Source of the DNA: a virus
Lineage: Duplodnaviria > Heunggongvirae > Uroviricota > Caudoviricetes
DNA: 64,000 nucleotides
Direction: 5' to 3' (one strand)
IMG/VR virus record: IMGVR_UViG_3300028797_000098
Location: 38,321 to 102,320 of that record
The notes beneath the pieces are model-generated. The model was not told where the DNA came from and ran no database searches. It saw only the letters and a program-made list of their open reading frames with translations. Both the position numbers and the translations under genes were made by a program. Of the stretch, positions 9,460 to 63,105 are shown in pieces (within the stretch, counting starts at the first letter, position 1; every line of letters begins with the position of its first letter).

Positions 9460-9505
9460 TTTTTTGTTCATATTTTGTGAATATCTGTTGCCAACATGTG
9501 AAAAT

Positions 9506-9518
9506 ATTGCTATATATT
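9506..9518 (+). promoter_or_regulatory. TTTGCTAYATTT-family promoter element
   Basis: ATTGCTATATATT 40 nt upstream of the 9558 ATG. Confidence 0.4.
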
Positions 9519-9557
9519 CGATAACAAAAACATTAACATCTAACAAAGGATTGAAAA

Positions 9558-9788
9558 ATGAAGAAGAACGCTGTTGCTTCCGCCACGAAGACTGTTGCAG
9601 ACAAGGAATCTCAGGCAACTATCAAGAAGCTCACTGCTGAAAATGCAAAGCTCACGAAGTCCCTCAAGTCCGCTGTCGCCAAGGCTGACAAGGCTGCTTC
9701 CGCATCTGCCGCTAAGCTTGCAAAGGCTAACGACAAGATTGCAAAGTTGCAGGAAACTGTCGCAGCTCTCAAGGGCAAGAAGAAGTAA
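9558..9788 (+). CDS. small Lys/Ala-rich coiled-coil (histone-H1-like) protein
   Basis: AAAGGATTGAAAA then ATG. 76 aa, about 45% Ala+Lys. Confidence 0.5.
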   Translation: MKKNAVASATKTVADKESQATIKKLTAENAKLTKSLKSAVAKADKAASASAAKLAKANDKIAKLQETVAALKGKKK

Positions 9789-9828
9789 TTCAAACCACAT
9801 ACCCTCCTTTGTGGTAGGCAACCGGCAT

Positions 9829-9862
9829 CATGAGGGCCGGTTGTCATTTTTTATTCGTATTG
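9829..9862 (+). terminator. rho-independent terminator
   Basis: CAACCGGC-atcatgaggg-CCGGTTG followed by TCATTTTTT. Confidence 0.6.
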
Positions 9863-9870
9863 CTATATTC
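9859..9870 (+). promoter_or_regulatory. promoter element ATTGCTATATTC
   Basis: Ends 5 nt before the ATG at 9876. Confidence 0.45.
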
Positions 9871-9875
9871 GGTGT

Positions 9876-10547
9876 ATGGAACAAGGAACAAGACTTTACA
9901 TCAATATTACCAACCGCTGCAATACGGACTGCCCGTTTTGCTGCATGTACTCCGGAACGGGAAATACTATCGACATGGATTTCGATGTGTTCCGTCGCAT
10001 CATAAATGAATGCCATGGCGACTTCGAGATTCAGTTTGAGGGCGGTGAACCCTTGATCCACAAGAATTTCTACCTATTCCTCGAATATGCCATCTCGACT
10101 GGCCGTTGCAAGAAGGTGAATATCCTGACGAACGGCATCGTGCTCGGGAAACACCTGCCTCGCCTGGTAAGTGTGTACAAGTGGTATGACATTCCCTTTG
10201 AAATCAAGGTATCGGTGAACTACTGGCTTATCAGGAAGCATGAAAACCATATCAAGCTGATTGCCGACTATGTGTTCGCCACCGAATACATGCCGAACTT
10301 CAATATTGTCCTGAATACCCGCAAGCGGCATAACGATGAGTGGATTGACGAGGAAATCAAGAATGCCGGGATGGAGGCCATTAACCACTCATTTTACCTT
10401 CAGAGTTATGGTAAGATGACTGGAAGCGACTATGATGGGGTGAAGATTGTCCAGAACATTGAAAACTGGCAGATTTACTCTGTAGATGGGCTGTGTTTCC
10501 ATCAGGACCTGGTTGCCCGTTCCGAACATGAGAGGAATCTATCGTGA
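9876..10547 (+). CDS. radical SAM protein, paralog 1 (MoaA/PqqE-like core)
   Basis: CNTDCPFCC CxxxCxxC motif, FEGGEPLIH, ILTNG. Confidence 0.7.
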   Translation: MEQGTRLYINITNRCNTDCPFCCMYSGTGNTIDMDFDVFRRIINECHGDFEIQFEGGEPLIHKNFYLFLEYAISTGRCKKVNILTNGIVLGKHLPRLVSVYKWYDIPFEIKVSVNYWLIRKHENHIKLIADYVFATEYMPNFNIVLNTRKRHNDEWIDEEIKNAGMEAINHSFYLQSYGKMTGSDYDGVKIVQNIENWQIYSVDGLCFHQDLVARSEHERNLS

Positions 10548-13348: not shown

Positions 13349-13367
13349 ACGTTTTTTAACAATTCAA

Positions 13368-13400
13368 TGGCACTGCTATTTTTCAAAGTAGTGCCATTTT
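13368..13400 (+). terminator. hairpin terminator
   Basis: AATGGCACTGCT-attttt-caaAGTAGTGCCATT followed by TTTT. Confidence 0.5.
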
Positions 13401-13411
13401 TGCTATATTTT
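13397..13411 (+). promoter_or_regulatory. promoter element TTTTGCTATATTTT
   Basis: 6 nt upstream of the ATG at 13417. Confidence 0.5.
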
Positions 13412-13416
13412 CTTGT

Positions 13417-14181
13417 ATGAATAAAAATAATCCAGTAAAACTGTCCGATATCAAGGAATTCTTGCCTGAAGGCCCGGTGTTGTTCAATCCGCCCAAGACG
13501 ATGTATGTTTGGGATGATGACGATGCGAATGACCCTGAAACAAGTGCACCTTACCTTGCTGAGGTGTTATACGTAAATCCTTCTCTGGGTGTTAAGCGTG
13601 TGTTTGCTCGCGGGAATGGAATGGCTGCGCAGAATGCAGGCGCCACCTGGGACCACTGCGCCGAAACTACCGGTACGGGACGGCTATTTGCACTGGCATA
13701 CATTGATGGCACATTGGGTTCTAGTGAGCAGCTGGACCACCATGTGATCAAGATATTTAATGATGACGATGTGAAGATTAACCCGTCTGCCGGATTGGCA
13801 ACTTATCGTGAGCTATCCGAATGGCTTTCAAAAGGCAAGGGACAGGTTTTAATGGCCCGTCAAGACGATGCGATTATTCCGCCAACAATTACCAATACGC
13901 TTGCGTATCCGAATCATTTGGATGAAAAACCAGTGCCTTATTCATTGACTGCGGGTACCGGTGAAATGTATTACAAGATTAGGCGATACGACGATACCGA
14001 ATTTGTTGATCCGCTTCGTAAGAACCTGGAAGAACCGTCTTGCAAGGCTGTACTTGATTCTGCAGTTGAAGTGCCGGAATCGGTTAAGCATAATCTTGGA
14101 CTGCAACCCGGGCAATGTTGTCATCATTTAGCCAGTACTCCCGATTGGTCAACTGTTGTAGATGAGGGTAATCATGGATAA
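13417..14181 (+). CDS. hypothetical protein
   Basis: 254-aa ORF directly after a promoter element. Confidence 0.5.
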   Translation: MNKNNPVKLSDIKEFLPEGPVLFNPPKTMYVWDDDDANDPETSAPYLAEVLYVNPSLGVKRVFARGNGMAAQNAGATWDHCAETTGTGRLFALAYIDGTLGSSEQLDHHVIKIFNDDDVKINPSAGLATYRELSEWLSKGKGQVLMARQDDAIIPPTITNTLAYPNHLDEKPVPYSLTAGTGEMYYKIRRYDDTEFVDPLRKNLEEPSCKAVLDSAVEVPESVKHNLGLQPGQCCHHLASTPDWSTVVDEGNHG

Positions 14182-17488: not shown

Positions 17489-17512
17489 AGGTTGCCGCAA
17501 GGCAACCTTTTT
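17489..17512 (+). terminator. rho-independent terminator
   Basis: AGGTTGCC-gcaa-GGCAACCT followed by TTTTT. Confidence 0.7.
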
Positions 17513-17523
17513 GCTACATTTGG
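17508..17523 (+). promoter_or_regulatory. promoter element TTTTGCTACATTTGGG
   Basis: Contains TAcaTTTG. 3 nt before the ATG at 17527. Confidence 0.5.
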
Positions 17524-17526
17524 GAC

Positions 17527-18762
17527 ATGAAGATTGAAGAAAAGTACATTTCCGAGACAGTCAAGAAGGGTATCGGCTTGCTCGCCGAAATCCATAAGCG
17601 CGGGCACGAGGCATACATTGCCGGTGGCGCCGTGCGCGACCTCGTAATTCGCCAGTTGCACATGGTGTCGGGTTCCGAAAATGAAGTTCCCGTGCATGAC
17701 GTGGACATCGCGACCAACATGCCCATCGAGGACCTGAAACTTGCCTTCCGCTGCGACTCCAATAACGGGGAAGCGCATGGCACGATCCTGGTCCATTATG
17801 ATGGCCTGGTGTTTGAGGTGACCCAGTTCCGCGTCGATGGCAACTATTCCGACGGTCGCCACCCGGATTCGGTGAATTTCACCAAGTCCTTCAAGGAAGA
17901 CTGCGCCCGGCGTGACTTTACCATTAACGCTATGGGTCTGGACAAGGACCTCAATGTCATCGACTATTTCGGCGGTATTGACGACCTGGTATTCCGTCGT
18001 CTCCGTGCAGTGGGCAACCCGTATGACCGCATGACCGAGGATTCCCTCCGTATCATTCGCGGTATGCGATTTGCCGCCCGTTTCGGTTTCGTGATTGACG
18101 ACCTTACCAAGTTGGCCATGCGCAGCCGCCTGCACCACATCAAGAGCGTGGCGATGGAGCGCATCCATGACGAATTGCACAAGTGTGCCGAGTATGGCGT
18201 GCTGCCTTTCGTGAACATGATTGGGTACCTGTCCGAGTATGGCATCGGATCAATTTTCCAGGATGTCGGCTTCTGCTTTGACCGTCAGCGCATGCTCGTG
18301 GAATCCTTGGTACGCGGAAACGTGGATGCCGATACAATCATGTCGGTATTCATCTGCATGCTGCCGAAGAAGTCCATGGAATGGCTCCGCTGCACCCGTA
18401 AGGAAATCCGCATGGCCGAGCGCATCAGGGATGGCCTGATTGGCATCATGTCCGGAAAGTTCGGTCTTGCCGATGAGCAGTTGCTCTATTCCGTTGAACT
18501 GGCCGCTTCCCCGGAATTCAGGCTCATTACCAACCTGTACCGCGAACTGAACCCGTATGGTACCGCCCTGGGTGATGGTGCGGCGACGATATGCGATGTC
18601 ATTGCGCGTTGCAGGAAGGGCGTACCCGAATACGGAAAGCAGGTTGCCGCGGAAGGTATCCAGGAAGGACCGGAATTTGGCAAGCGCCTGCGGGAAGTCA
18701 TCCTCGCCGACTACAAGAGAATCAAGGATGAGTGGGACAAATCAATGAACAGGATGTGGTAA
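17527..18762 (+). CDS. cca: tRNA nucleotidyltransferase (CCA-adding enzyme)
   Basis: Class II head domain GGAVRDLVI...DVDIAT, then RIIRGMRFAARFGF. Confidence 0.75.
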   Translation: MKIEEKYISETVKKGIGLLAEIHKRGHEAYIAGGAVRDLVIRQLHMVSGSENEVPVHDVDIATNMPIEDLKLAFRCDSNNGEAHGTILVHYDGLVFEVTQFRVDGNYSDGRHPDSVNFTKSFKEDCARRDFTINAMGLDKDLNVIDYFGGIDDLVFRRLRAVGNPYDRMTEDSLRIIRGMRFAARFGFVIDDLTKLAMRSRLHHIKSVAMERIHDELHKCAEYGVLPFVNMIGYLSEYGIGSIFQDVGFCFDRQRMLVESLVRGNVDADTIMSVFICMLPKKSMEWLRCTRKEIRMAERIRDGLIGIMSGKFGLADEQLLYSVELAASPEFRLITNLYRELNPYGTALGDGAATICDVIARCRKGVPEYGKQVAAEGIQEGPEFGKRLREVILADYKRIKDEWDKSMNRMW

Positions 18763-20771: not shown

Positions 20772-20800
20772 AATGCGGTTTCCAAATGACCGCATTTTTG
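20772..20800 (+). terminator. rho-independent terminator
   Basis: AATGCGGT-ttccaaatga-CCGCATT followed by TTTT. Confidence 0.6.
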
Positions 20801-20810
20801 CTATATTTTG
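20795..20810 (+). promoter_or_regulatory. promoter element TTTTTGCTATATTTTG
   Basis: 3 nt before the ATG at 20814. Confidence 0.5.
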
Positions 20811-20813
20811 AAC

Positions 20814-22160
20814 ATGAACGATAATAGCGAAATTTTCAAGAATAACATCCCGGAACTCCCGCCGTTCTCGAAGGAACTCGAACGGTACTGGCAGGAACAG
20901 GTAACCAACGGTGCCATGTCCGAAACCGAGAAGAGGGTCCATGAAAAGGGTATCCTCCTCATCAAGGTGGCCGCGGGTTCGCAGTCGTTCGGTCTTGCCA
21001 CCGAGACTTCCGATGTGGACATTCACGGTGTGTATATCCTGAAATGGAGCGAGCGCATCAAGCACGATGCCCCGAGCCAGATTGCCGACGAGAAGAACAA
21101 CGAGGTCTACTGGGACATCACGAAGTTCCTTACCGAGTTGAACTCCGCCAATCCCCAGGCCCTCGAAATGCTCTATGCTCCGAAGCATTGCGTATTTGTG
21201 GGCCAGTCTATCCTCGAAATCCTCCGAAAGAAATTTGACTTCCTCACCATGCGTTGTGACAAGTCGTTCTGCGAGTATGCCCGTGGCCAGGTTGACCGTG
21301 CGAAGGGCCTGAACAAGAAGGTATTCGATCCGCAGCCGGAGAGGCGCCCGCGTTTCGTCGATTTCATCTATGTCCTCGATGGCAACCTCGCCACTCCCCT
21401 CATGGAATGGATTAAGGCCAATTATCGCGGCAAGCCGGAAGAAGTCCAGCGTTGGTTCTCCATCGCCCGGATCGACCATGGCGATTGCATCTACGCGGTG
21501 TATTTCCAGAAGAAGCCGCTGTCCATCAGTATCCACAAATTCGTCCGGAAATGTCTCTCCAAGGTATTCAAGGGTGTCCGTCAGCTTCCCGAGCACAAGT
21601 GGCGTTGGGGCTATGGTGTCGTCCGTGACATCGAGCGCAGCGATGATATCCAACTCAACTCCATCCCAAAGGGTTTGAGCTCCGTTGCCCATATCTTCGT
21701 GAACCGCAACGACTTTGCACGTAAATGCAAGAAGTGGCACGAGTATTGGGATTGGGTCAAGTCCCGTAACGAGGAACGCTACAACACCACGTTGAAGCAT
21801 GGCCAAGGCTACGATGCGAAGAACATCATGCACTGTGTCCGTCTGCTCCTTACCGCTTACGGTATCGCCACCGAGCATACCGTCCCGGTCTACCGCGCTG
21901 ATAAGGATTTGTGCAACATGGTCTGTATGGATTACAACAAGCACCCGTACAGCAATGACCGCGATTTCCTCCTTGCAATCAAGAATGGTGACTGGACGTT
22001 TGACGACATCATCGACTATATCGGTGCACTTGGCAAGGAAGTTAACAAGGCTTTTGCCGCATCCGGATTAAAGGAAAAGGCCTATACGCCGGAAGAAATC
22101 GACGAGTTTGCAGTCGAACTCTCTAAAAATATCCTTCCGATGGAATGGAAGAATTTTTAA
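20814..22160 (+). CDS. Pol-beta-superfamily nucleotidyltransferase
   Basis: GSQSFGLATETSDVDIHGVY is the G[SG]x9-13Dx[DE] motif. ATG at 20814 preferred over the TTG at 20808 used by the track. Confidence 0.5.
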   Translation: MNDNSEIFKNNIPELPPFSKELERYWQEQVTNGAMSETEKRVHEKGILLIKVAAGSQSFGLATETSDVDIHGVYILKWSERIKHDAPSQIADEKNNEVYWDITKFLTELNSANPQALEMLYAPKHCVFVGQSILEILRKKFDFLTMRCDKSFCEYARGQVDRAKGLNKKVFDPQPERRPRFVDFIYVLDGNLATPLMEWIKANYRGKPEEVQRWFSIARIDHGDCIYAVYFQKKPLSISIHKFVRKCLSKVFKGVRQLPEHKWRWGYGVVRDIERSDDIQLNSIPKGLSSVAHIFVNRNDFARKCKKWHEYWDWVKSRNEERYNTTLKHGQGYDAKNIMHCVRLLLTAYGIATEHTVPVYRADKDLCNMVCMDYNKHPYSNDRDFLLAIKNGDWTFDDIIDYIGALGKEVNKAFAASGLKEKAYTPEEIDEFAVELSKNILPMEWKNF

Positions 22161-23048: not shown

Positions 23049-23068
23049 CCGGTTGCCAAATGCAACAG

Positions 23069-23084
23069 TAATTGCTATATATTG
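23069..23084 (+). promoter_or_regulatory. promoter element TAATTGCTATATATTG
   Basis: Preceded by the GGTTGC-caaa-TGCAAC hairpin. The 840-aa gene starts about 195 nt downstream. Confidence 0.4.
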
Positions 23085-23278
23085 AATAACGGCTAGGCGG
23101 CCCCTTGCGCGGCTGACTGGCTGGATTGAACGAAGAGGATTTGGATGGGACGTGTGTCGGCCCTCACCGCAAGGTGGTCAGCGGCTGGCGCGTGTTCTTG
23201 AAAGGTCCTTGGAGGCTGCGGTCGAGCAGGGGGACGCCCCTGTAAGGCCGCAGTTTCTGTTTTTTAAAGAGAGTAACG

Positions 23279-25801
23279 ATGCTACCGAACGAAACTGCAC
23301 ATGGTTCAGAAGGCGATGCCTACCGCTACACCAAGAAGGTCCTGATGGCCCTACCCAACAGGGGGCGGCTGCAGACTATCTATGAGGAAATTGCCCAGAA
23401 AAGGGGGATTTCTTCCTGGACCCGTGCAGCATACCAGGAGGTCCGTACCCACTTTTTCAGGGACGGACAGTGCAAGATCCGTTTCGCGCCGGGTGCCGCA
23501 AGAATTGCGTTTGGCGAATTGTCGCTTGGTACAGGTGATGAAGAACCGGGGCCGATTGGCCGTCTTCATGACATAATTCGCATTATTTCCATTGCCCATT
23601 CGAGTGAGTATGACCGTTATCTTGGTATTGACGGTAGACGCCCGTCATTCAAGGAACTTGATGAAATATATGGCCAGAGGATAGCCAAGCAATGGAGCGC
23701 GATGCGACGCATGCTCCGCAGACGGAAGTATGGACAGAGACGTTATGAGATAATCCCTCTTGATGAATTTGAAACGGCGAACAAATATGCCGAATACACC
23801 CAGCCGCATGTGTGGTGCCACCTCAATTCACAGAGCATGTTTGACCATTATCGGATGGCCAGTGCCGGGGATAAGAAGCTGCCGGTGAAACTTTACCTGG
23901 CCGTTCTTCCTGGTTTCGAGAATTTGACCGAAAGCGATGAACTGTATGGCGAATCCATGCTGGGTATCGACATCGGGCCCGGTGGCCGTCTAGTCCATGT
24001 GAATAACCGGTGGAACCATGCCCATGACAATGTGGATGTCCGCAAGGGCGACAACAAGTACGACGAGGTTGAACTTTCGGACTTGCTTGGTGGCCCATTC
24101 TTTGAACTATGCCCACCCTATGGGCATGATACATATCGTGAGCTGGCGGTCCGCATGCGCGAGGAGCGACTTACAAACAATGCCAAGGTGATTGCTGATA
24201 GGAAGAAGATTACTAAGAGTATATGCCTTGGCAAGAACCGCATTCGCCGGTCCGGAACATTCACTGACAAGAGGGATGGCAAGACCTACCGTACGGAGAC
24301 TATTGGAGGCAGGACGTGGATGGCCGAACCACTCAAGTACTCTCCAACGAAAATTCCGGAAATTCCGGCAAATCTGAAAAAACTGGAAACCATACTATGC
24401 CCCGTACGCCCGGAAATCAAGGTATTCCTTCCGATCCTGTGTGTTACCCGCACAGAAGAAGGACTGACATGTTCGATTGACTGGCAACATCCTGCCGATG
24501 CTGAGACGGCAAATGTCATAACGCATGAATGCAATGGCCGGGTTAATGATTCGGTGTATGTTCACCATGATATGCCGAATAACTATGTGGTAAAGACTTC
24601 CTCCAGATGCTATGTTAGTATGGGTGGCAACATAGATGTGTATGATGCGATATATAACGTGTTTCTTGAAGGGGTCAAGATAGGCGATACCATCATCGAT
24701 GGCTCTTTATTAGAGGACTTGTCGTCATGTCTTGATTTTGGCCAGGCTGACAACTACTGGGCACAAGTGCGTGATGAACGTGAGCGAACCGTGCGTGATG
24801 CACTGGAGAAAGCGAACCTCCCGCATGACGAGACGAGTGTTACAGTTGTTACCGATATGCTTGTTAAGGAATATACCAATGGCCGGGGTATTGGGGAGTT
24901 TAGGATAACCGACCAGGTAGGCAACTCCGGCACATATGGCCGAGCGTCACTTATATTATTGACCCATTCCAACACGCCGCATTCGCGTAACTATTTACAG
25001 TTTGGTAAGGCAAGGGAACTCGTCACATATAGATACAAGGCGGATGCTTTAACCCCGGAGACGGAAGCGATTATACGCGCTCTCAATCCGTCCATTACCG
25101 TCAGCGTGACGGCTGAAGATGGTTCGCGGGGTGTATTGTATTCGCATGCGGATATCAAGGAGACCATACCGGACGGCTGGCACTTGCCAACCATTGATGA
25201 CCTGTATCGCCTGTATTCGGCGTTGGGTGGAAAGGTTATTCGAAGCGGTGCTGGAAATTGCAACAAAATATGCTCCAATTCCTGGTCTAATGGCCGTGCG
25301 TTTACCATGTGCGGTGTCAGGATACCGAAACAATTACATAAGGATGATTCATATCCATCTCTGTATATTACGACTGACCAGGGAAGGTGCGACATAGTTC
25401 ACAGTAACGAGGATGAGGATGATGAAATCCGGGAAACTGGAAAGAGTGCGCCGGATATCATGCGGGACTTGATGGGGTTTGGTTCATTGGTTAAAATTGC
25501 TGGCCAAGACACCGGGTTTATTCAAAATTCAACATTTGGCAATGTGGCCCCGTTTGTGTCGCAGGAAGTATGTATCACGGACTTGCTTGACACTGATGGG
25601 AACGTGAAAACGCAGATTCATTGGTTTAGGTCGGCAAGGGTTGATCTTGTTGGCGACCAGCTCATAATGCACACTGAGACCGAACGGCAAGAAGAGAGAC
25701 TTATGGTCGGCGATGGGCAGTACATTACCGACGAGGGCTTCATACAGTACAACAAGTTTACAAACTCCCGCAGACGGTTTTTGTTCCTGGTGAAGGACTA
25801 G
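23279..25801 (+). CDS. large protein with a Fib_succ_major (TIGR02145-like) domain
   Basis: FTDKRDGKTYRTETIGGRTWMAEPL and PDGWHLPTIDDLYRLYSALGG match the Fibrobacter succinogenes major paralogous domain consensus. Confidence 0.6.
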   Translation: MLPNETAHGSEGDAYRYTKKVLMALPNRGRLQTIYEEIAQKRGISSWTRAAYQEVRTHFFRDGQCKIRFAPGAARIAFGELSLGTGDEEPGPIGRLHDIIRIISIAHSSEYDRYLGIDGRRPSFKELDEIYGQRIAKQWSAMRRMLRRRKYGQRRYEIIPLDEFETANKYAEYTQPHVWCHLNSQSMFDHYRMASAGDKKLPVKLYLAVLPGFENLTESDELYGESMLGIDIGPGGRLVHVNNRWNHAHDNVDVRKGDNKYDEVELSDLLGGPFFELCPPYGHDTYRELAVRMREERLTNNAKVIADRKKITKSICLGKNRIRRSGTFTDKRDGKTYRTETIGGRTWMAEPLKYSPTKIPEIPANLKKLETILCPVRPEIKVFLPILCVTRTEEGLTCSIDWQHPADAETANVITHECNGRVNDSVYVHHDMPNNYVVKTSSRCYVSMGGNIDVYDAIYNVFLEGVKIGDTIIDGSLLEDLSSCLDFGQADNYWAQVRDERERTVRDALEKANLPHDETSVTVVTDMLVKEYTNGRGIGEFRITDQVGNSGTYGRASLILLTHSNTPHSRNYLQFGKARELVTYRYKADALTPETEAIIRALNPSITVSVTAEDGSRGVLYSHADIKETIPDGWHLPTIDDLYRLYSALGGKVIRSGAGNCNKICSNSWSNGRAFTMCGVRIPKQLHKDDSYPSLYITTDQGRCDIVHSNEDEDDEIRETGKSAPDIMRDLMGFGSLVKIAGQDTGFIQNSTFGNVAPFVSQEVCITDLLDTDGNVKTQIHWFRSARVDLVGDQLIMHTETERQEERLMVGDGQYITDEGFIQYNKFTNSRRRFLFLVKD

Positions 25802-25816
25802 TTGCCACCTTCTGCC

Positions 25817-25836
25817 CATTTTGCTACATTTTGGGT
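25817..25836 (+). promoter_or_regulatory. promoter element CATTTTGCTACATTTTGGG
   Basis: Immediately upstream of the ATG at 25837. Confidence 0.5.
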
Positions 25837-26661
25837 ATGAATCCTAATATCAACAAGGCAATAGACATTTTCAACTCGGAACATCCGGTCTCGACCATCC
25901 TCGAAAACCGAGATTTCTTCCCGTTCATCGAAAATGAAATGATGGGGGTCGCCCATCCGAAGGTACACTGCGAGGGTGACGTGTGGGACCATACCGCCCT
26001 CGTAATCAAGAATTTACGCGATGGCCATGACTGGGTGGACGTGATGATTGCCCTGTTCCACGATGCCGGCAAGAAGCGTGCACTCGAAAAGAACGAGGGC
26101 AAGAACATGGCCGGACATGAACTTTACAGCCTGGATGTGTTCAACGAATGGATCCGAAACGAGGTTGGTGGGGTCATCCCCAATATCGTCCCGCTTCACT
26201 GGGTCATCGAGAACCACATGAACGCCCTGGTCCTCGGTGAAATGAAGTCCAGGTTCCGCATCATGCAGATTGTGACCCACCAGTGGTTCCCTAGGCTCCA
26301 TACATTGGCCGATGCCGACTGCAAGGCAACCATCGGCGAGGATGGCAAGCCCGTGCATGACTTCATGCGGGAAGTGCTGCTTTCACCCAAGGTGTCGCGA
26401 TGGGTTGGCCAGTGCGCCCCGGCGCCCATTGCCAACGAGAATGACTTCTACGAGGCGGATGTCCCGCTGAATTTCACCCGTGCGGCAGTGGAGTTCGGCC
26501 TGAAACTGCAGGTCAACGGGAACATCACTGACCGTCAGCATATTATCAACGGCGTGCTTGGTGACAAGGCATTCAGGCAGACCATTACCGACTGGCACGA
26601 AAAGTGTGACCAGTGGGTTGAAAATTTGAAGAAGGAATTTCCGGATGACGACTTACATTGA
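25837..26661 (+). CDS. HD-domain phosphohydrolase
   Basis: H...HD motif (MIALFHDAGK). ATG preferred over the TTG at 25831. Confidence 0.55.
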   Translation: MNPNINKAIDIFNSEHPVSTILENRDFFPFIENEMMGVAHPKVHCEGDVWDHTALVIKNLRDGHDWVDVMIALFHDAGKKRALEKNEGKNMAGHELYSLDVFNEWIRNEVGGVIPNIVPLHWVIENHMNALVLGEMKSRFRIMQIVTHQWFPRLHTLADADCKATIGEDGKPVHDFMREVLLSPKVSRWVGQCAPAPIANENDFYEADVPLNFTRAAVEFGLKLQVNGNITDRQHIINGVLGDKAFRQTITDWHEKCDQWVENLKKEFPDDDLH

Positions 26662-29745: not shown

Positions 29746-29810
29746 GATGGATGGGCCTGGCTTCGGGTTCCATAAAATCTAGGATTGCATATAGTTGCCG
29801 GCAATGCCGG

Positions 29811-29829
29811 CATTTGCTATATTTGGAAC
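29811..29829 (+). promoter_or_regulatory. promoter element CATTTGCTATATTTGGAAC
   Basis: Preceded by the GCCGGC-aat-GCCGGC hairpin. ATG at 29830. Confidence 0.5.
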
Positions 29830-30384
29830 ATGACGGAAATATTTATAGACATCGAGAATACGCTCATTGACGACTTGTACAGTTGTACGCTTTTGGAGGA
29901 GCAATGTAAGCGAATTTCAAGCTATGTCTTGGAAAAAATTGCTGAACATGAACATGGAATGCCCGTCAAGGTAAGTTTGTTTACTTGGGGGTGGAAGACT
30001 AAGGATGAAATTCGGGATTACGTCGTAAAGTGGCTATTCGACGCACTGGAAATTCCGGCGGAAAATCGTGGTCGGGTATGGACCAAGGATGATTCTATCG
30101 AGTGTGCTTACAAGCATAAGTGGGTCAATACTAAGGATGAACTGGAAATCGATGACCTGCATATCCCTGGTGCAATGAATCGCTATGGATTAAATAAACA
30201 GATGTGTTTCGTGCAGCAAGCCATGGATGAAACTAGTTTCCCGTCAAGAATAGATAACACCGAAACCGATGAGTTTATCCTCATCGACGATACTAACAAT
30301 AGGTGGTATGAGACTCGTTCCATGACGACGTACGACCACAATGTGGAAGTAATTATAACGTTTGAACACCCGGAGGAAATTTAA
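29830..30384 (+). CDS. hypothetical protein
   Basis: ATG directly after the promoter element. Confidence 0.45.
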   Translation: MTEIFIDIENTLIDDLYSCTLLEEQCKRISSYVLEKIAEHEHGMPVKVSLFTWGWKTKDEIRDYVVKWLFDALEIPAENRGRVWTKDDSIECAYKHKWVNTKDELEIDDLHIPGAMNRYGLNKQMCFVQQAMDETSFPSRIDNTETDEFILIDDTNNRWYETRSMTTYDHNVEVIITFEHPEEI

Positions 30385-32408: not shown

Positions 32409-32437
32409 AATTTAGGAAAATCCTCCGATATGGCTGG

Positions 32438-32455
32438 AAATTTGCTATATTCGGG
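32438..32455 (+). promoter_or_regulatory. promoter element AAATTTGCTATATTCGGG
   Basis: Followed by a non-coding structured region and then tRNA-Gly(CCC). Confidence 0.45.
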
Positions 32456-32708
32456 ATAACAGTCGTCCGTTCTGCCACAAGAATCAGTGGAGTGTCGCTT
32501 GGGGTCATGACCAGGCAGCCGATGAGCGGTCCTGAATCATCAGTAAATGGTTCTGTGCCCATGCAGATATCATGCGGCGGGGGATGCCTTTCCCCTTTCT
32601 GGAAATTCGCTCCCATAAGGAAGAAATTAGGCACCCTTCCCCTGGGGTAAAAGGGGAAACGGTTGGACCACCCGTTACCGTGACGTGATTTACCACGGAG
32701 GCCCACCA

Positions 32709-32781: not shown

Positions 32782-32800
32782 TTTAGCAAAGGATGACAAC

Positions 32801-40190: not shown

Positions 40191-40471
40191 TGCAGGCGTT
40201 TTATTGTGCGAATTCCGTATATGCCAACCGGGATGAAAATGGTGTGTTCCATACCCGTTATTGGGAAATGGCCAGTTCCAACCGTGGATGTACTGAACTG
40301 GACTTGATTGATGTCCAGATTGATGGTGATTATTTTGCCTTGGTTGTCTGCTATCCAGGGAAGCCGGAAAGTACCCATACACTCTATGCCAAGAAGGTGA
40401 CATCCGGTAATGACCGTTGCGGATGGCGCAAGCGCGTGGGTGGAATCGGCTTTGAGGAAGTTGCCGGTTGA
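40190..40471 (+). CDS. hypothetical protein
   Basis: 93 aa. TAATG overlap with the upstream gene. Confidence 0.4.
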   Translation: MQAFYCANSVYANRDENGVFHTRYWEMASSNRGCTELDLIDVQIDGDYFALVVCYPGKPESTHTLYAKKVTSGNDRCGWRKRVGGIGFEEVAG

Positions 40472-40502
40472 CGGCCACGTGCATAAATGCTAGGTTTGAT
40501 AT

Positions 40503-41102
40503 ATGGAAAAGATTGTTTATTCAGAAAGAATCCGTGACTTGATTGACCATCTGGTGCGTATCAAGGTAATTCATAAGAAGAAGGGTTATCTTGTTGGATG
40601 CCAGCAAATGCTTGAAAAAGCTCTCGACATCAGCACTGATTATGATCAGCATAATGCACTTGAAACAATCAAGGCCGAAATTTGCGCTTTGCAGCATGAA
40701 GAAACCCAGCTTCGTAAAAAGACCGGTGAGGTTAAGACTGAACTGGCTGAACTCCTGATGGAAACATATAGGGGTAAGATTGTCCGTGCAGGTGACTCGG
40801 TATTTCACATGATTGACCGGGTTGAATTTGCGTCCGGAAATGATACGCTTATCGTGTTTTACACAAGAGGGCTTGATACCAAGCTTAAGACGATGGATGC
40901 GAAACACAGGTGCTGTGATGATATGGTCCGCATGTGGCCGGAACCGTTGAAGCTGGACTTGCCGGAAGGTGAACATTATCTTACGGGTCTTCCGAGAATG
41001 TACTTTGTTACATGGGAGGACTTGGAACCGGAATTCGAACTAATCGATCCGACCGGTTCAATCAAGAAGAATGCCGCTGAAATGTGGGGCATCAAGATAT
41101 GA
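40503..41102 (+). CDS. hypothetical protein
   Basis: 199-aa ORF. Confidence 0.45.
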   Translation: MEKIVYSERIRDLIDHLVRIKVIHKKKGYLVGCQQMLEKALDISTDYDQHNALETIKAEICALQHEETQLRKKTGEVKTELAELLMETYRGKIVRAGDSVFHMIDRVEFASGNDTLIVFYTRGLDTKLKTMDAKHRCCDDMVRMWPEPLKLDLPEGEHYLTGLPRMYFVTWEDLEPEFELIDPTGSIKKNAAEMWGIKI

Positions 41103-42505: not shown

Positions 42506-42518
42506 TTTACATTCCTTT

Positions 42519-42561
42519 TATTTGAAAAGTAGCAAAAAATGCGCTCTTTTGCTATATTTAT
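42519..42561. promoter_or_regulatory. divergent promoter pair sharing the palindrome AGCAAAAAATGCGCTCTTTTGCT
   Basis: Minus: TTTTTTGCTACTTTTC. Plus: CTTTTGCTATATTTATTGC followed by the ATG at 42565. Confidence 0.45.
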
Positions 42562-42564
42562 TGC

Positions 42565-43143
42565 ATGAAAAAGATTGAATATCCAGAAGACCTTCTGAAA
42601 ACCGTCGATACATTCTCTGAACTTCGCGCAATCCGCAGCTTGATTGGCAAGTACATGATGATAAAGAAGCTTATGTACGATGTCAAGCGGGACGAGAATG
42701 TGACTTCAAGACTCCCCGATGACCTTATCACGGGGGTCCGAGATAGAATTGCTGAATTGAACGAAAGACGGGACTTCTTGGCCTCGAAGGAAGACGATAT
42801 CCGGCATCGACTGGTGGATTCTCTCAAAGATTTGCTGGTTTCCAAGATTTTGCATATGGAACGGTTTGACAATGCGTGGAAACTGGATGAGTATGTTGCT
42901 GTCGAAGACGTTTCGTGGTATGGACCCGTCGATATCAGGATAACCGGAAAGGCATACCAGCTTGACTGTAATTACTCTTTGACTAGGCGGGATTACACCG
43001 ATACGTTCCCCCTATGGATGGATTCCCCGGAGGCATTGAATTATAAGGGTCCCCACTATGACAATTTGCTTCCGCTTATTGCCGAGATGGATGGTGAGGA
43101 CGATGTGAAACAGCACTTGCTGGGTGAAACCTTTAACTTCTGA
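42565..43143 (+). CDS. hypothetical protein
   Basis: 192-aa ORF. Confidence 0.5.
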   Translation: MKKIEYPEDLLKTVDTFSELRAIRSLIGKYMMIKKLMYDVKRDENVTSRLPDDLITGVRDRIAELNERRDFLASKEDDIRHRLVDSLKDLLVSKILHMERFDNAWKLDEYVAVEDVSWYGPVDIRITGKAYQLDCNYSLTRRDYTDTFPLWMDSPEALNYKGPHYDNLLPLIAEMDGEDDVKQHLLGETFNF

Positions 43144-46636: not shown

Positions 46637-46654
46637 TTTTTGTTGGATGGCGGG

Positions 46655-49124: not shown

Positions 49125-49724
49125 TTATTTTCCTTTGTCTTTGATATAATCAACAAATGCTTTCGTGTAGATCGGGAGTTCGTTAACCATGATTTCGAGT
49201 AGATCGATAAGTCCTCCATATTTGAGGCCGTTGCCAAGAACATATTTGTAATTTTCGCAAGATAAGCGCAAAGGCATAATTAGCATCTCATTACCGTAAA
49301 TCCCGTTTTTCTCAATTTCTTGGCGAAGGGTGTGCGAGTCGAAGAATATGGCATGCTTGCCTGTATCCGCATGTCCTTCGACGACACACATTGCACCTAG
49401 CTTGCAATTCTCCGTAATGATTAAATTTGGCTGCTGCATTCGGTTCTGTACGCACTGCTCTCCGTTACGGGAGGTGAAATATAGCGATGTCGGGTTGTTG
49501 AATGAAATGCGATCAGCTAAATCCAGTTGCGTATGAAGTGCGAATAGCGTACGCAAGCTTTCCTGGGTTGCCGCAATAGCTTGTTCGGCCTTTTCAAGAC
49601 GGCTAATACACGACTTGATCTTTTCATCACGGTCAGTTTTCTTTCGTTCCTTAAATTTATCAAGGAGCGTTTCCATTTCCTGGCGGTCGATATTGAATAG
49701 TGGCGGTGTAGATGCATTTTCCAT
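49125..49724 (-). CDS. hypothetical protein
   Basis: 199 aa. Minus-strand promoter element GGTTTGCTACATTTTATGC and a GTTGC hairpin lie upstream. Confidence 0.5.
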   Translation of the reverse strand: MENASTPPLFNIDRQEMETLLDKFKERKKTDRDEKIKSCISRLEKAEQAIAATQESLRTLFALHTQLDLADRISFNNPTSLYFTSRNGEQCVQNRMQQPNLIITENCKLGAMCVVEGHADTGKHAIFFDSHTLRQEIEKNGIYGNEMLIMPLRLSCENYKYVLGNGLKYGGLIDLLEIMVNELPIYTKAFVDYIKDKGK

Positions 49725-49730
49725 GCATAA

Positions 49731-49746
49731 AATGTAGCAAACCGTT
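49731..49746 (-). promoter_or_regulatory. promoter element TTTGCTACATTTTATG on the minus strand
   Basis: Immediately upstream of the ATG at 49724. Hairpin GTTGC-cactatt-GCAAC lies further upstream. Confidence 0.5.
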
Positions 49747-49798
49747 GCAATAGTGGCAACAAAATGCTAGTTTTGGAATAAGCGGAGGAAAATGTTAT

Positions 49799-53589: not shown

Positions 53590-53632
53590 TTGAATTATAA
53601 ACTACCGGTGATTACCGCCGGCAGTTTTTATA
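53590..53632 (+). terminator. terminator hairpin (TATAAACTACCGG family)
   Basis: ACTACCGGTG-attaccg-CCGGCAG followed by TTTTT. Confidence 0.5.
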
Positions 53633-53656
53633 TGGCCACTAAATAGGAAATCGACG

Positions 53657-55612: not shown

Positions 55613-55631
55613 TCGTTCCTAGTCCTATAAT

Positions 55632-55668
55632 ATTATAAACTACCGGGAAACAAATCCCGGTAGTTTTT
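55632..55668 (+). terminator. rho-independent terminator (TATAAACTACCGG family)
   Basis: ACTACCGGGA-aacaa-ATCCCGGTAGT followed by TTTTG. Confidence 0.7.
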
Positions 55669-55713
55669 GTATATGACCGGCACACAAGAAAAACGCTTTG
55701 GGTGGGCATAGCC

Positions 55714-56367: not shown

Positions 56368-56381
56368 CGGGGTGTGGCCGT

Positions 56382-57708: not shown

Positions 57709-57710
57709 TT

Positions 57711-58388: not shown

Positions 58389-58489
58389 AATCTGTAGTTT
58401 ATAGAATTAGCTCAGTAGTCTGTATAGTATCATTATCGCCCCGCATAACCCGCCATTCCTTGCGACAGCCACGGGTTGCCGGACGGTGC

Positions 58490-58512
58490 CCAGTTTGCTA
58501 TGTTTTCTATAT
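58490..58512 (+). promoter_or_regulatory. promoter element CCCAGTTTGCTATGTTTTCTAT
   Basis: Immediately upstream of the ATG at 58513. Confidence 0.45.
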
Positions 58513-58906
58513 GAGACATATCAATGCCAAGGAGCTACCCGTAATGCTAAATCAAAATCTTCATAATTTCTTCACCGAAGCAAAAACCGCGCTTGGAATC
58601 CATGGCAGCATTGATGACATGGCTTCTGATATTGGAAAGAAAGTATACCGGGTAGCGAAAGAACTCTCCAGGCAGTACGTCGATGGGACGGTGATGTTTA
58701 AGGACGCGGAGCATACCGACCCATATCAAGAAGTCCACTACAAAATCTCATGGGGCAAAGAACACGGAGAAAAAGTCACTGAAATCTGGGATGATGCAGT
58801 GTTTGCGGATGACGAATTGACTGGCCTATACTGCTTAAACGTTGCGACTGATGAAATGTGCGACGAGTTCGAATACATCAAAGAAATTAAACGAATCAAG
58901 AAGTAG
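58513..58906 (+). CDS. hypothetical protein
   Basis: Alternative start at 58545 after AAGGAG. Confidence 0.4.
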
Positions 58907-60318: not shown

Positions 60319-60336
60319 CGAGTTAACTCCTTTGGT

Positions 60337-60726
60337 CTACCATAGGATGACCATCATGATTATCACTATTACTAAAAAGATTCCAAACAATTCCTTGCAA
60401 TCGTCCGATGATATGGACTCGGATGTGGAGTCATCATCGTCATCATCCCGCCATCCCTTGTGGTAGTCATCGGGGAAGTCGGCTTTTGCATCCGGGTCCA
60501 TGAAGGCTTCTTCCGAGTGCCATCCGTCACCGTATTCCACCCAGATGTCATCGTCCTCGTCCTCGAGCTTTTCCCATTCCCAGATGTCGTCATCGTCGCT
60601 CAGCCGGTTCTTGTATTCGTATGTCGGTTCCCGGTCGTCCTCCATGGAGGCGGGTATCCCCGGCATCCTCGATATGAACGGGCTCTCGTAGCCCGGATCA
60701 ATCATTCGTCTATATCTTTTCGCCAT
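60337..60726 (-). CDS. highly acidic protein
   Basis: Asp/Glu/Trp-rich with an N-terminal TM helix. Confidence 0.4.
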
Positions 60727-60894
60727 AGCCTGTCCCAGTATTTCTTCCAGAAGATTTCGTAGCCGGATGGCGTCTTGTCACCGTCGAAGATGCCGGCGAC
60801 ACAGAGAAGCCAGTCGGATTCGTAGTTTTCTAGGTCCTTCATCAGAGTTCCACCTCGACTTCCTTGATTACCTTGCGGAAGTCATCCTTGCATT

Positions 60895-61431
60895 TCATTT
60901 TGTCTGCCAGTCATTGATGATATCAGAGAGCTCCTTACAAGACGCCATCAGCGCCTTGGCTTCTTCTTCCTGATTCTTGATGCGCTTTTGGCACTTCTTG
61001 ATGTCAAGGGAAGCGCCTGCCCTCTCTAGCATCTTGGCGATCCATTCGCCAGACTTCTCGAAGGCGATCTCCTTGAAAGACTTCATGTTCTCCTGAGCGT
61101 AGACTGTGTCGACTCCGCATTCTCGTTCGGGAATGAAGGCTTCCACTCTGTAGGATTTCAGCACCTTTCCAGACCAGTAGTCCTCGTGCTCGTCGAAGGC
61201 CTCGATGAGCTTGATGCCGGACATGGATTCTCTCATGTAGTCGATGAGTTTATCGGATACGAAGTTGTGGTCTCCGTGGTAATTGTCGTATCTCTTCCCG
61301 TCACTCAGCTTTTTGATCTTCTTCGGAAACTTGTACCACAGGTTGAACCGGTAGTTGCTGTTTCCGATTCTCGGGAAGTCGCCACGGACTGGCGCATCTT
61401 CGGCTTCAGGTATTACGTCAAATTTTTCCAT
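60895..61431 (-). CDS. hypothetical protein
   Basis: 178-aa ORF. Confidence 0.45.
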   Translation of the reverse strand: MEKFDVIPEAEDAPVRGDFPRIGNSNYRFNLWYKFPKKIKKLSDGKRYDNYHGDHNFVSDKLIDYMRESMSGIKLIEAFDEHEDYWSGKVLKSYRVEAFIPERECGVDTVYAQENMKSFKEIAFEKSGEWIAKMLERAGASLDIKKCQKRIKNQEEEAKALMASCKELSDIINDWQTK

Positions 61432-61470
61432 TTATTCCTCTCGGGTTTCCAGTTATCCCTCTCGCTCAGC

Positions 61471-61764
61471 CTAATCACGGTATGCCAAGAACGATGGTCT
61501 GTATTTGTCATTGTTGTATGAGCCAAGTTGTTCAAGCTGCGTTTCAGACAGCTTTTCAAACACCGGTGTCATACGGAGAAAGTGAGTCGCATTTGAGAAA
61601 TAGCACACAGGTATTACACCTTCGGGAACGGGTTCATCGTAATAGGTTTCACCCGTTTGCCAGTTTCTATGGCAACTGACGGAAATCACTTCCTTGTCGT
61701 AGATTTCGCAAAGACGTTCTACTTCTTCTTTGCCAAGTTCCATAAGTTCTTTATAGTCTTTCAT
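61471..61764 (-). CDS. hypothetical protein
   Basis: 97-aa ORF. Confidence 0.45.
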   Translation of the reverse strand: MKDYKELMELGKEEVERLCEIYDKEVISVSCHRNWQTGETYYDEPVPEGVIPVCYFSNATHFLRMTPVFEKLSETQLEQLGSYNNDKYRPSFLAYRD

Positions 61765-61772
61765 AAATCCTC

Positions 61773-62103
61773 CTAGTGGATTTGTTGTAAGAGTTGTTCA
61801 ACGGAACTTCCGGCCTTGTGTTCTAGGTCCAGCAGGGATGTCAGGTAAAGCACGACATCCAGCGCTGCCTTGATTTCGACCATGTGGTCCTTGTCGGTCC
61901 CTATCTTGACTACGTGTCTGGCGTTGAAGTTGAGGGTCCCCACGGTATTGGTCAGGACGGACACCCGGCATGATGACTCGGGTAACTGGACGATGGGACA
62001 GTCGAGTAAGACAGTCACGGGAATGTTCTGCTCGAACGATACGAGGGTGCCTACGATGACACAGCCGTCACCCAGATGGACAATAAGGGGGATATTGGTC
62101 ATG
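61773..62103 (-). CDS. hypothetical protein
   Basis: AAGGAGAACCC then ATG on the minus strand. ATGA overlap with the upstream gene. Confidence 0.45.
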
Positions 62104-62917
62104 GGTTCTCCTTGTACATGTTGAAAATCTCGGCGAACTGTTCCTGCCGGCGTGCAAGCTGGCGTGCGTTGCCCCTGGCGAGCCATTCGTCGAACTCGGG
62201 GTCCTTCTTGTACTTTTCCTTTGAGGTGGCGTCGAGCATCGCCGCATTGGAATCCTGGCAGAGCTTAACGAAGTCGATGAAGCCCTGGTCGGTCTCGCTC
62301 CCGAAGGTGTAGGTCCTGTCGTACAGGTCAATGACGACCTTCATGCCATCCACGCGGACGTGGCCGATTTCGCCATCGTAGTAGTGCGAGGCTTCGCCGG
62401 TATAGATTGTGAGCTCGTCCTTCTTCATGTTCGGGACGATGCCCGCGTGGCGGTTGCGCTTGAAGTCCCATTCCAGTTCGAGCTTGCGGTGGATTGCGCT
62501 GAATATGGCCAGCTTGAAGGGAGGGACATGGTCCTTGTCGTACCATCCGGAGCCATAGTCGCCAATCTTGCGCGTGTATCCCTGTTCGCGGAGGTAGTCA
62601 TCGACGCTTCCCTCGTGGAACGGCTCGATGTCGAGGTATTCCCACTTCTCGTTGATCTTGGCGACCCTCTTGCAGTTCAGGTCCTTCAACAGGGTATTGT
62701 CCCATGTGTGCCAGTAGGCGTCATAGGAATCCTTGCCGTACTCGACCTTGTGGCCGGTGCTGTCCACTTCGAGCGCCTTGTCGAACAGTGGGCACACGTA
62801 TCCCCATTGCGGGGTGGTGTCGAGCATCTTCTTGGTAAGGAAGCGGTAGGAGGAGAGCTTGTCTTCCCCGGTGACACCACCGGACAAGATGTACATTTTG
62901 TTTAGAATTCTTCCCAT
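62099..62917 (-). CDS. hypothetical protein
   Basis: 272 aa. Minus-strand promoter-like CATTTTGCTATATTTG at 63051-63066. Confidence 0.5.
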   Translation of the reverse strand: MGRILNKMYILSGGVTGEDKLSSYRFLTKKMLDTTPQWGYVCPLFDKALEVDSTGHKVEYGKDSYDAYWHTWDNTLLKDLNCKRVAKINEKWEYLDIEPFHEGSVDDYLREQGYTRKIGDYGSGWYDKDHVPPFKLAIFSAIHRKLELEWDFKRNRHAGIVPNMKKDELTIYTGEASHYYDGEIGHVRVDGMKVVIDLYDRTYTFGSETDQGFIDFVKLCQDSNAAMLDATSKEKYKKDPEFDEWLARGNARQLARRQEQFAEIFNMYKENP

Positions 62918-63105
62918 AGTTTCATAACCCTGCCCTTATAGGCTGTGACTGCTGAATACTGAATGTACATATTCAAACTGCTGTCGCATGTATTCGGCAA
63001 ATTGCCCCATTGTCCATTTTTGACATCTCAAAATCATATAAAACTATTGACAAATATAGCAAAATGAAGTATATTTGCAATAGAATTGCCTAAGAAATCG
63101 AAAAA

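Follow-up and report, generated by a model that had tools for sequence, protein, structure and literature searches.

In T4-like phages, promoter-early stem-loops (PeSLs) combine promoter and terminator activities, both of which have been verified experimentally (Arbiol et al. 2010, PMC2839356; Comeau et al. 2014, PMC4122927). The PeSL cassette is the closest known analogue of the element described here, a motif that recurs, in this case without a Shine-Dalgarno (SD) sequence, in a 64,000-nucleotide stretch of DNA (the window) from IMG/VR virus record IMGVR_UViG_3300028797_000098 (positions 38,321 to 102,320). The window comes from a jumbo phage, probably a rumen phage, that has not been cultured and belongs to the NAD-synthesising type of PMC11662467. 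The second relevant system is leaderless expression from promoters that abut the open reading frame (ORF), which is well known in Actinobacteria and Deinococcus-Thermus (PMC3160421, PMC12340547) and of which a first T of the -10 box located 12 nt before the start codon is the signature (PMC3160421).

The motif is best read as a promoter of the sigma-70 family with an extended -10 element. It would serve as the consensus promoter for the rumen jumbo phage and for related phages, read by a sigma-70-family holoenzyme that most probably contains the primary sigma factor of the host, a reading given a probability of about 0.68. Among phages, expression of lambda cI from PRM is a precedent for leaderless expression, and Sevostyanova et al. 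reportedly found in 2007 that the middle and late genes of the Thermus phage phiYS40 are leaderless; routine leaderless use is uncommon outside Actinobacteria, Deinococcus-Thermus, and archaea.

A Repeated Motif with Fixed Geometry

The core of the motif is the 12-mer TTTGCTAYATTT, with eight exact matches in the window against 0.02 expected and 11 matches with at most one mismatch against 0.67 expected. A scan of the window with a 33-nt position weight matrix (-20 to +12 in motif coordinates, where 0 is the first base of the 12-mer) and with mononucleotide shuffles as the control returned 14 sites with scores of 19–37, where the next score was 14 and the shuffle maximum was 16. These are exactly the 14 sites on the list of a first-pass annotation made from the letters of the window, which had placed each of them within 0–4 nt of the copy found here. 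The association with genes expected by that annotation was borne out by the scan, as all 14 sites are intergenic or at the 5′ end of a gene and are oriented toward the downstream gene. The set is extended by degenerate copies at 40486 (+) and 49763 (+) and by a canonical TTGACA-N17-TATATTTG at 63047 (+). A scan of the whole sequence collection for TTTGCTAYATTT-N5-ATG gave no usable signal, which was swamped by chance matches.

Alignment of the sites on the 12-mer revealed a second box, GTTGCC, at positions -19 to -14, with each base present in 10–12 of the 14 sites and an A following at -13 in 11. The distance from GTTGCC(A) to the 12-mer is exactly 13 nt whether a hairpin is present or not. 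The first-pass annotation had described GTTGCC as a feature of hairpin stems; because its distance to the 12-mer is fixed with or without a hairpin, it is, on this geometry, a -35 element and not a sequence defined by the hairpins, which are optional. Among 17 further instances in related contigs, chosen by the -10 block alone, a GTTGNC-type hexamer is found at the same position in nine, and in a tenth TTGCCA is displaced by one base. Written as a promoter, the motif is TTGCCA-N17-TAYATT with a TG one base 5′ of the -10 box in 14/14 sites. The columns of the -10 box are T (14/14), A (A-11, 14/14), Y, A (12/14), T (14/14), and T (T-7, 12/14), TTGCCA matches TTGACA at five of six positions, and the spacer is 17 bp at every site with a recognizable -35 box. 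A generic sigma-70 consensus scanner scored seven sites as promoter-like with the upstream TG. The enrichment, the bipartite geometry, and the placement support in silico the proposal of the annotation that the motif is a promoter.

In the relative L149, the motif is found at each orthologous position, and related rumen phage contigs of 200–250 kb share the motif design. Between orthologous pairs, the spacer and the upstream flank have diverged almost completely with both boxes left intact; two conserved boxes on either side of a drifting spacer are the footprint expected of a bipartite protein-binding site. Divergent pairs of promoters occur in two layouts. In the first, both share a palindromic -35 box, GTTGSCAAC (49741/49763 in the window and 5270/5300 in L156), and in the second, a back-to-back arrangement, the -35 position of one promoter coincides with the reverse-complemented -10 block of the other (42536/42548 and 63063/63047).

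Two other descriptions of the repeat were considered and rejected. For a dimeric operator built on the GTTGC..GCAAC palindromes, the half-site spacing varies (0, 1, 4, 5, and 7 nt) and the palindromes are not kept at orthologous sites; for a mobile repeat of the type of a miniature inverted-repeat transposable element, conservation is confined to two short boxes and does not extend into the flanks, which are unrelated.

Predicted Transcription Start and Probably Leaderless First Genes

Position +17, which lies 7 nt past the -10 hexamer, the distance at which enzymes of the sigma-70 type initiate, is an A in 12 of the 14 sites and is usually preceded by a pyrimidine at +16. This A is the first base of an ATG at eight sites, with the ATG one base later at a ninth, and the interval between 12-mer and ATG, put at 3–10 nt in the first-pass annotation, is thereby sharpened to 5 nt at eight of the 14 sites and 6 nt at one. 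The chance of finding ATG at +17 or +18 in at least nine of 14 sites is about 1.6e-9. Among 72 distinct instances from the window and its relatives, ATG begins at +17 in 27 and at +18 in three, with no other offset represented more than twice, +17 is an A in 57, and +16 is a pyrimidine in 62. The first T of the -10 box is found 12 nt ahead of the start codon. The abutting start codon is ATG in every case (nine of the 14 sites and the degenerate copy before ATG 40503), and the public gene calls begin at the same ATGs as the motif predicts. For every ATG-abutting gene the duplex with the anti-SD sequence has an energy of -3.1 kcal/mol or weaker, which amounts to no SD, as the annotation had noted for the genes downstream of the motif. 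Since these genes lack an SD and their ATG coincides with the predicted start, the mRNA of the first cistron after an ATG-abutting promoter should be leaderless; the same suggestion had been made from the promoters abutting start codons, and the nine of 14 sites with ATG at +17/+18 support it in silico.

At the remaining sites, ATAA(C/A/G) occupies the start position and is followed by a leader with an SD (genes at 9558, 42505, and 49799), by a structured RNA, or by non-coding sequence and tRNA-Gly. Such copies, which precede non-coding RNA, tRNA, or SD leaders and not an ATG, favor a promoter with a fixed start over a signal for translation.

The use of the SD elsewhere in the window is of a different order. 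Among genes with a leader and an ATG start, 41% have an anti-SD duplex of -6 kcal/mol or stronger, as compared with 7% of controls, and their SD logo contains G at 35–55% at positions -12 to -8. The gene for KptA carries the AAGGAG ascribed to it in the first-pass annotation. In the control locus L148, from the Bacteroides phage B40-8, no SD logo was found and only A-rich upstream regions are present; an SD logo as opposed to an A-rich upstream region is a quick discriminator of host type. The SD-led genes are internal cistrons and the leaderless genes are the first cistrons behind a promoter. The two expression classes of the annotation are better explained by this position in the operon, with a leaderless first cistron and SD-led internal ones, and two regulons are not needed.

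Hairpins and Terminators

Folding of the 45 nt upstream of each site revealed a convincing terminator-like hairpin at five of the 14 (9859, 13399, 17510, 20797, and 29813) and weaker stems of 5–6 bp at 23071, 49741, and 58494. Of the six hairpins named in the first-pass annotation, five exist and three of these are strong, the sequence at 25801 not being a hairpin, and only about 5/14 sites are terminator-like overall; an upstream terminator that runs into the promoter, as described there, is nevertheless present at some sites. The register of the hairpin varies, with the -35 box forming the 5′ arm at 17510 and the 3′ arm at 9859, overlapping the stem in part at 29813, and lying in the stem or loop at 20797. 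A strict hairpin ending beside a T-run accompanies 15 of the 72 distinct instances (21%) as compared with 7.2% of control TTTG sites (P = 1.5e-4). The hairpin is not kept at orthologous sites, as exemplified by GCCGGCAATGCCGGC at 29813, which is replaced by unrelated sequence in L011. On this evidence, the hairpins appear to be frequent passengers, with the promoter as the fixed element: where a co-directional unit ends just upstream, its terminator would be squeezed into the promoter and would take its U-tract from the TTTTG of the extended -10 element.

The motif, its geometry, its position relative to genes, and its conservation are seen in the sequence; the initiation of transcription, its exact point, leaderless translation, and the sigma factor involved are deduced from them. 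In the mechanism proposed, each promoter would comprise (G)TTGCC(A) as its -35 box, a spacer fixed at 17 bp, TTTG-C as the extended -10 element, and TAYATT(T) as the -10 box, with a pyrimidine and then an A, the predicted transcription start, six to seven bases beyond the -10 box. At about two-thirds of the sites the start A would be the first base of the ATG and the first cistron would be translated leaderless, with internal cistrons translated through SD sequences. At the other sites, the transcript would start with ATAA and contain a short leader with an SD, a tRNA, or a structured non-coding RNA. The intrinsic terminator of the preceding co-directional unit would often be packed into the promoter with its stem over the -35 box or the spacer, and this packing would give compact, insulated expression units. 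A further step, in which the leaderless promoter-proximal genes are translated at once without an SD and the SD-led internal genes only once the phage has freed the anti-SD (e.g. by replacing or modifying bS21), is very unlikely; if it were true, each copy of the promoter motif would mark a point of entry into a strategy that reprograms the ribosome.

Candidate Polymerase and Host

Within the ~75 kb of sequence covered for this phage (the window plus 5–6 kb of flanking contig per side), no sigma or RNA polymerase domain was found. Searches of the available sequence of the window's family with E. coli sequences as queries revealed no phage sigma factor, bS21, IF1, or IF3. A sigma-70-like gene and an IF1 gene were found only on a contig binned as Fibrobacter sp. 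ruminal_MAG_346, and this contig (L024) is a piece of a different, 348-kb jumbo phage (IMGVR_UViG_3300037512_000782), in which the sigma gene is 100% identical. The sigma-70-like protein, with regions 2 and 4 (L024, about 1460–2310, minus strand), lies beside the IF1 homologue (2666–2884, plus strand), and the gene pair is conserved across a family of phages of 300–355 kb (L158–L183). In this family, the insertion sequence (IS) of the window is present with 88% nucleotide identity, together with a few promoters that share the design of the motif; no homologue of its sigma factor was found in the window's relatives. The lack of a sigma factor in the covered sequence, the promoter design of the other family and of the IS, and the canonical TTGACA-N17-TATATT together favor the host primary sigma factor as the reader of the motif.

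Several points weigh against this assignment. The argument for a promoter is one from sequence, and the generic sigma-70 scan of the window, the consensus of which may not be that of the host, shows no overall enrichment. The candidate host lineages are not known for efficient leaderless translation, and leaderless mRNAs are rare in Bacteroidota (3.7–5.5%; PMC7366714, PMC9723704). Moreover, the covered sequence is a minor part of a genome of about 220 kb or more, where a sigma factor or an RNA polymerase-modifying protein may be encoded elsewhere, and 12 consecutive bases are near invariant (C at -13 and T at -8 and -6 among them), a conservation stricter than that of ordinary host promoters that could reflect a dedicated factor.

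These last two points would suit a phage-encoded sigma factor or a host polymerase retargeted by the phage, for which the motif would define one temporal class, middle or late, with leaderless first genes as in phiYS40. The sigma-70-like protein of the co-occurring rumen jumbo-phage family, encoded beside its IF1 homologue, indicates that such factors exist in the habitat. Such a factor is nonetheless unlikely here: in addition to its absence from the covered sequence and the failure to find a homologue of the other family's protein among the window's relatives, the genes served are of the auxiliary or early type (tRNA processing, NAD metabolism, and RNA repair), and a complete, near-consensus combination of -35 box, 17-bp spacer, and extended -10 element is what a primary sigma factor reads. 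The promoter-like sequence of the IS and the canonical TTGACA-N17-TATATT have the same geometry.

The first-pass annotation had noted a -7 element of Bacteroidota type (TAnnTTTG) in the motif, which on this reading would be a sigma-ABfr promoter (-33 TTTG and -7 TAnnTTTG) in a phage of Prevotella or other Bacteroidota. Several features resemble that promoter: T-12, A-11, T-8, T-7, and T-6 are conserved, the end of the element is 4 nt from the A as in Flavobacterium (PMC6847099), and GTTG is located 20 nt upstream of TA. The promoters of Bacteroides phage B40-8 have the form TTGC(A/C)A-N16-TAnnTTTG, the predicted hosts of one clade of NAD-synthesising gut jumbo phages are all Bacteroidota (PMC11662467), the window encodes a FISUMP domain protein, and one IS copy is on a contig binned as Prevotella. 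However, G-5, nearly invariant in Bacteroidota, is found together with a full TAnnTTTG in only 3/14 sites, and TAnnTTTG is not enriched, with 30 occurrences in the window against 35 expected, whereas the TG of the extended -10 element is invariant and the spacer is 17 bp. Bacteroidia ribosomes do not use the SD (PMC3155529, PMC13000453), in contrast to the SD signal of the internal genes of the window, of which B40-8 has none, and the Prevotella contig is 2 kb long and consists of the IS only. The Bacteroidota promoter is thus a doubtful explanation of the motif.

The leading guess for the host is Fibrobacter, and the host probably belongs to the Fibrobacterota-Chlorobiota-Bacteroidota group. 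Three weak indications point to Fibrobacter: the GC content of the window is 48%, which matches that of Fibrobacter succinogenes, the FISUMP domain protein passes its cut-off, and a contig with copies of the IS is binned in a Fibrobacter metagenome-assembled genome (MAG). In the survey of PMC3155529, Bacteroidetes, including Prevotella, are without SD use and Fibrobacteres have a detectable SD. A literature search on Fibrobacter promoters yielded nothing of use. TnpB was rejected as a marker of the host, because the Fibrobacter contig belongs to the other jumbo phage, which reduces the link to an association of binning, and the 2-kb Prevotella contig holds only the IS; all TnpB matches in plasmids are below 60% identity. 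Nucleotide and protein searches against cultured phages revealed no close relative and hence no host.

In addition to their role as promoters, the cassettes of 30–40 bp could serve as recombination linkers that shuffle accessory genes, as PeSLs do in T4-like phages. The architecture is PeSL-like, with a sigma-70-like promoter and a stem-loop of variable register among ORFans and auxiliary genes (PMC2839356, PMC4122927), and the IS is inserted beside one copy of the motif. No insertion or deletion between the window and its relatives was found that is bounded by two motif copies, although no systematic test was made, and the conserved part, ~18 bp in two blocks, is short for homologous recombination; this additional role is rather improbable. 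Finally, an RNA-level element in polycistronic transcripts (an enhancer of translation that needs no SD, or a processing site, located 5 nt ahead of the ATG) in place of a promoter would fit the fixed distance to the ATG at 9–10 sites and the absence of an SD, but is extremely improbable given the five or six copies without ATG that precede non-coding RNA, tRNA, or SD leaders, the match to a -35 element of the second conserved box at a fixed 13 nt upstream, the freely varying spacer, and the terminators that end immediately upstream at five sites, as a result of which little read-through RNA would carry the element.

Individual Copies of the Motif

On the plus strand, the copy at 9487..9525 has GTTGCC at 9487–9492 and the -10 block ATTGCTATATAT at 9506–9517. 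Transcription is predicted to start at A9523 (ATAAC), giving a 35-nt leader with AAAGGA ahead of ATG 9558 of a 76-residue ORF. The next copy (9840..9878, GTTGTC and ATTGCTATATTC) abuts ATG 9876 of the first of three radical-SAM genes, which is predicted to be leaderless, and its -35 box is the 3′ arm of a terminator-like hairpin at 9817..9845 (plus strand; GGCAACCGGC..GCCGGTTGTC and then a T-run), with a minimum free energy (MFE) of -18.8 kcal/mol and a background quantile of 0.006. At 13380..13419, a weak -35 box (TTTTCA) is combined with TTTGCTATATTT and the copy is overlapped by a hairpin at 13366–13398; ATG 13417 is at +18 and its gene is predicted to be leaderless. The same prediction holds for the CCA-adding enzyme, whose ATG 17527 is abutted by the copy at 17491..17529 (GTTGCC and TTTGCTACATTT), where the -35 box is the 5′ arm of the terminator hairpin 17489–17508, and for the RlaP nucleotidyltransferase, whose ATG 20814 is abutted by the copy at 20778..20816 (GTTTCC and TTTGCTATATTT) with a terminator hairpin at 20772–20796.

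The copy at 23052..23090 (+; GTTGCC and ATTGCTATATAT) has its predicted start at A23088 (ATAAC) and by prediction drives a structured non-coding RNA. This RNA (23088–23272, plus strand) would be 185 nt long and GC-rich, with three strong hairpins, the last of which is followed by a T-run, and folds with an MFE of -97.1 kcal/mol (z = -5.5). It lies between the motif copy and the 840-residue FISUMP-domain gene and is conserved in L149; an Rfam search returned no credible family for it. The region may encode a small RNA of the phage or a regulatory leader, with the 23071 promoter as the source of the transcript.

At 25801..25839 (+), GTTGCC and TTTGCTACATTT abut ATG 25837 of a gene predicted to be leaderless; this copy has no hairpin, and its -35 box begins on the last base of the upstream stop codon. 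The copy at 29794..29832 (+; GTTGCC and TTTGCTATATTT) abuts ATG 29830, again with a predicted leaderless gene, and contains the hairpin 29796–29812 inside its spacer. An IS605-type TnpB element is located at 28377–29719, just upstream of this promoter (29813). The relative L149 has no TnpB element at the equivalent position and another TnpB copy elsewhere; copies of the IS with 88% identity are found in the Fibrobacter-MAG contig (two) and the 2-kb Prevotella-MAG contig (one). Upstream of tnpB, the IS contains GGTTGCCAA and TAGATT at 17-bp spacing.

The copy at 32422..32460 (+) has TTTGCTATATTC without a recognizable -35 box and a predicted start at A32458 (ATAAC). Downstream are 250 nt of non-coding sequence and then tRNA-Gly(CCC) at 32710–32782; the non-coding part (32458–32709, plus strand), which would be transcribed from this copy (32441) into the solitary tRNA gene, has no significant structure (z = -0.66) and no Rfam match. 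A degenerate copy at 40467..40505 (+; GTTGAC-N13-AATGCTAGGTTT) abuts ATG 40503, with a gene predicted to be leaderless.

The first back-to-back pair consists of a minus-strand copy at 42517..42555 (TTTGCTACTTTT), with a predicted start near 42519 and a 14-nt leader containing AAAGGAA before ATG 42505, and a plus-strand copy at 42529..42567 (GTAGCA and TTTGCTATATTT), which abuts ATG 42565 of a predicted leaderless gene. The -35 position of the latter, the 42548 promoter, is the reverse complement of its neighbor's -10 block. At the next divergent pair, the minus-strand copy at 49722..49760 (GTTGCC and TTTGCTACATTT) abuts ATG 49724, predicted to be leaderless, and heads a minus-strand operon that ends with KptA and a bidirectional terminator at 46604–46637. 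Its degenerate plus-strand partner at 49744..49782 (GTTGCA-N13-AATGCTAGTTTT) has a predicted start at A49780 and a 19-nt leader with GGAGG before ATG 49799; the palindrome GTTGCnnnnnnnGCAAC provides the -35 box on both strands. The plus-strand copy at 58475..58513 (GTTGCC and TTTGCTATGTTT) abuts ATG 58511, the gene again being predicted as leaderless. In the last pair, the minus-strand copy at 63044..63082 (TATTGC and TTTGCTATATTT) has a predicted start near 63046 and a leadered transcript to the gene 62917–62099, and is overlapped by a divergent plus-strand promoter at 63047..63083, TTGACA-N17-TATATT(TG), which faces a gene starting near 63105 and is the best sigma-70-type match of the window (11/12).

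Source Phage and Gene Content of the Window

Metagenome contigs of 160–220 kb carry proteins identical to those of the window, one of them from JGI sample 3300031998, the related IMG sample series of which are presumably rumen projects. The same genes with the same motif are present on IMG/VR contigs of 198–253 kb. The longest contig with a protein identical to one of the window is 221,920 bp, which sets the genome at about 220 kb or more.

The window contains 34 tRNA genes and encodes a NAD-dependent ligase, the CCA-adding enzyme, the RlaP nucleotidyltransferase, NMNAT/NUDIX and NAMPT-type enzymes, and KptA, together with three radical-SAM proteins, the TnpB insertion sequence, and dozens of small ORFs without family matches. 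A tRNA array of 33 genes at 5921–9459 covers nearly every amino acid. Ahead of it is a strong hairpin at 5873–5905 (CCAGGTTGC..GCAACCTGG and six T residues), which has the GTTGC stem and no -10 block, and the region 5662–5841 has an extended-10-like ATTGCTATAAAC with a 54-codon ORF. At 56380–58390, the GC content drops to about 37% as compared with 48% overall; this island, which contains three ORFs of foreign codon usage, was probably acquired recently. A second repeated cassette is present in two copies only, at 53590–53650 and 55625–55690 on the plus strand, on either side of a 651-residue gene. It consists of TATAAACTACCGG, a loop, and CCGGYAGTTTTTRTATATGRCC, a terminator hairpin followed by TATATG, and may be a different type of promoter or terminator.

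Comparison with Known Systems

The motif is a real and well-defined feature that is useful for annotation. For these rumen jumbo phages, a family without cultured members, it provides a precise model of the promoter down to the predicted start nucleotide; it delimits operons and points to two non-coding transcripts. It also corrects gene starts that ORF finders had over-extended (20808 to 20814, 25831 to 25837, 29785 to 29830, and 58460 to 58511). A further copy is located at 4642–4661 of L157, about 600 bp upstream of window position 1, 69 nt within the called DNA ligase gene and with an ATG at +17; the ligase probably starts at this ATG and would be leaderless, with the public call over-extended. 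Routine leaderless first cistrons, as suggested for these phages, would be informative on translation in the host, and the 40-bp element is a candidate compact promoter-terminator part for the engineering of rumen bacteria.

In comparison with sigma-ABfr promoters of Bacteroidota (PMC6847099, PMC7366714), the motif shares TA..TTT at -12 to -6, the 4 nt to the predicted start, and a TTG ~20 nt upstream of TA, with TTGC-type upstream boxes also found in Bacteroides phage B40-8. It differs in that G-5 is not conserved, a TG extends the -10 box, and the phage uses the SD; moreover, its spacer is not AT-rich and often contains GC-rich stems, and its first genes are predicted to be leaderless as opposed to a median 5′ untranslated region of 24–32 nt in Bacteroidota. 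With leaderless genes elsewhere it has in common the first T of the -10 box 12 nt before the ATG, the absence of an SD, and the invariable use of ATG, whereas the setting is a rumen jumbo phage, the -35 box is complete, and only the first cistron of each operon would be leaderless.

The likeness to extended -10 sigma-70 promoters (TGnTATAAT) and T4 early promoters (PMC2988021) is closer to the core of the element: the -35 box matches five of six positions of TTGACA, the spacer is 17 bp, the TG is present, A-11 is invariant and T-7 nearly so, and the conservation is stricter than in host promoters. In contrast to these, the motif has TTGCCA with a preceding G, an invariant C at -13, T for A at -8, and a conserved T-6.

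Like PeSLs, the copies are numerous and consist of a strong, conserved sigma-70-like promoter in intergenic regions, in some copies combined with a stem-loop terminator. The stem-loop has no fixed register with respect to the -35 and -10 boxes and often lies between them or over one of them. The regions in which the copies cluster are rich in ORFans and auxiliary genes, and the gene blocks there would form insulated expression units. Whereas PeSLs end in an SD before the ATG, here the ATG is at the predicted start with no leader; in addition, the stem-loop is present in a minority of copies (about 21–35%), the box sequences differ, and the phage appears to be of a different, uncultured lineage with a different, uncultured host, PeSL recombination and mini-circles being features of T4-like phages. 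Taken together, the motif cassette is best read as a tidy variant of the known promoter-terminator cassettes of phages and not as a new kind of element.

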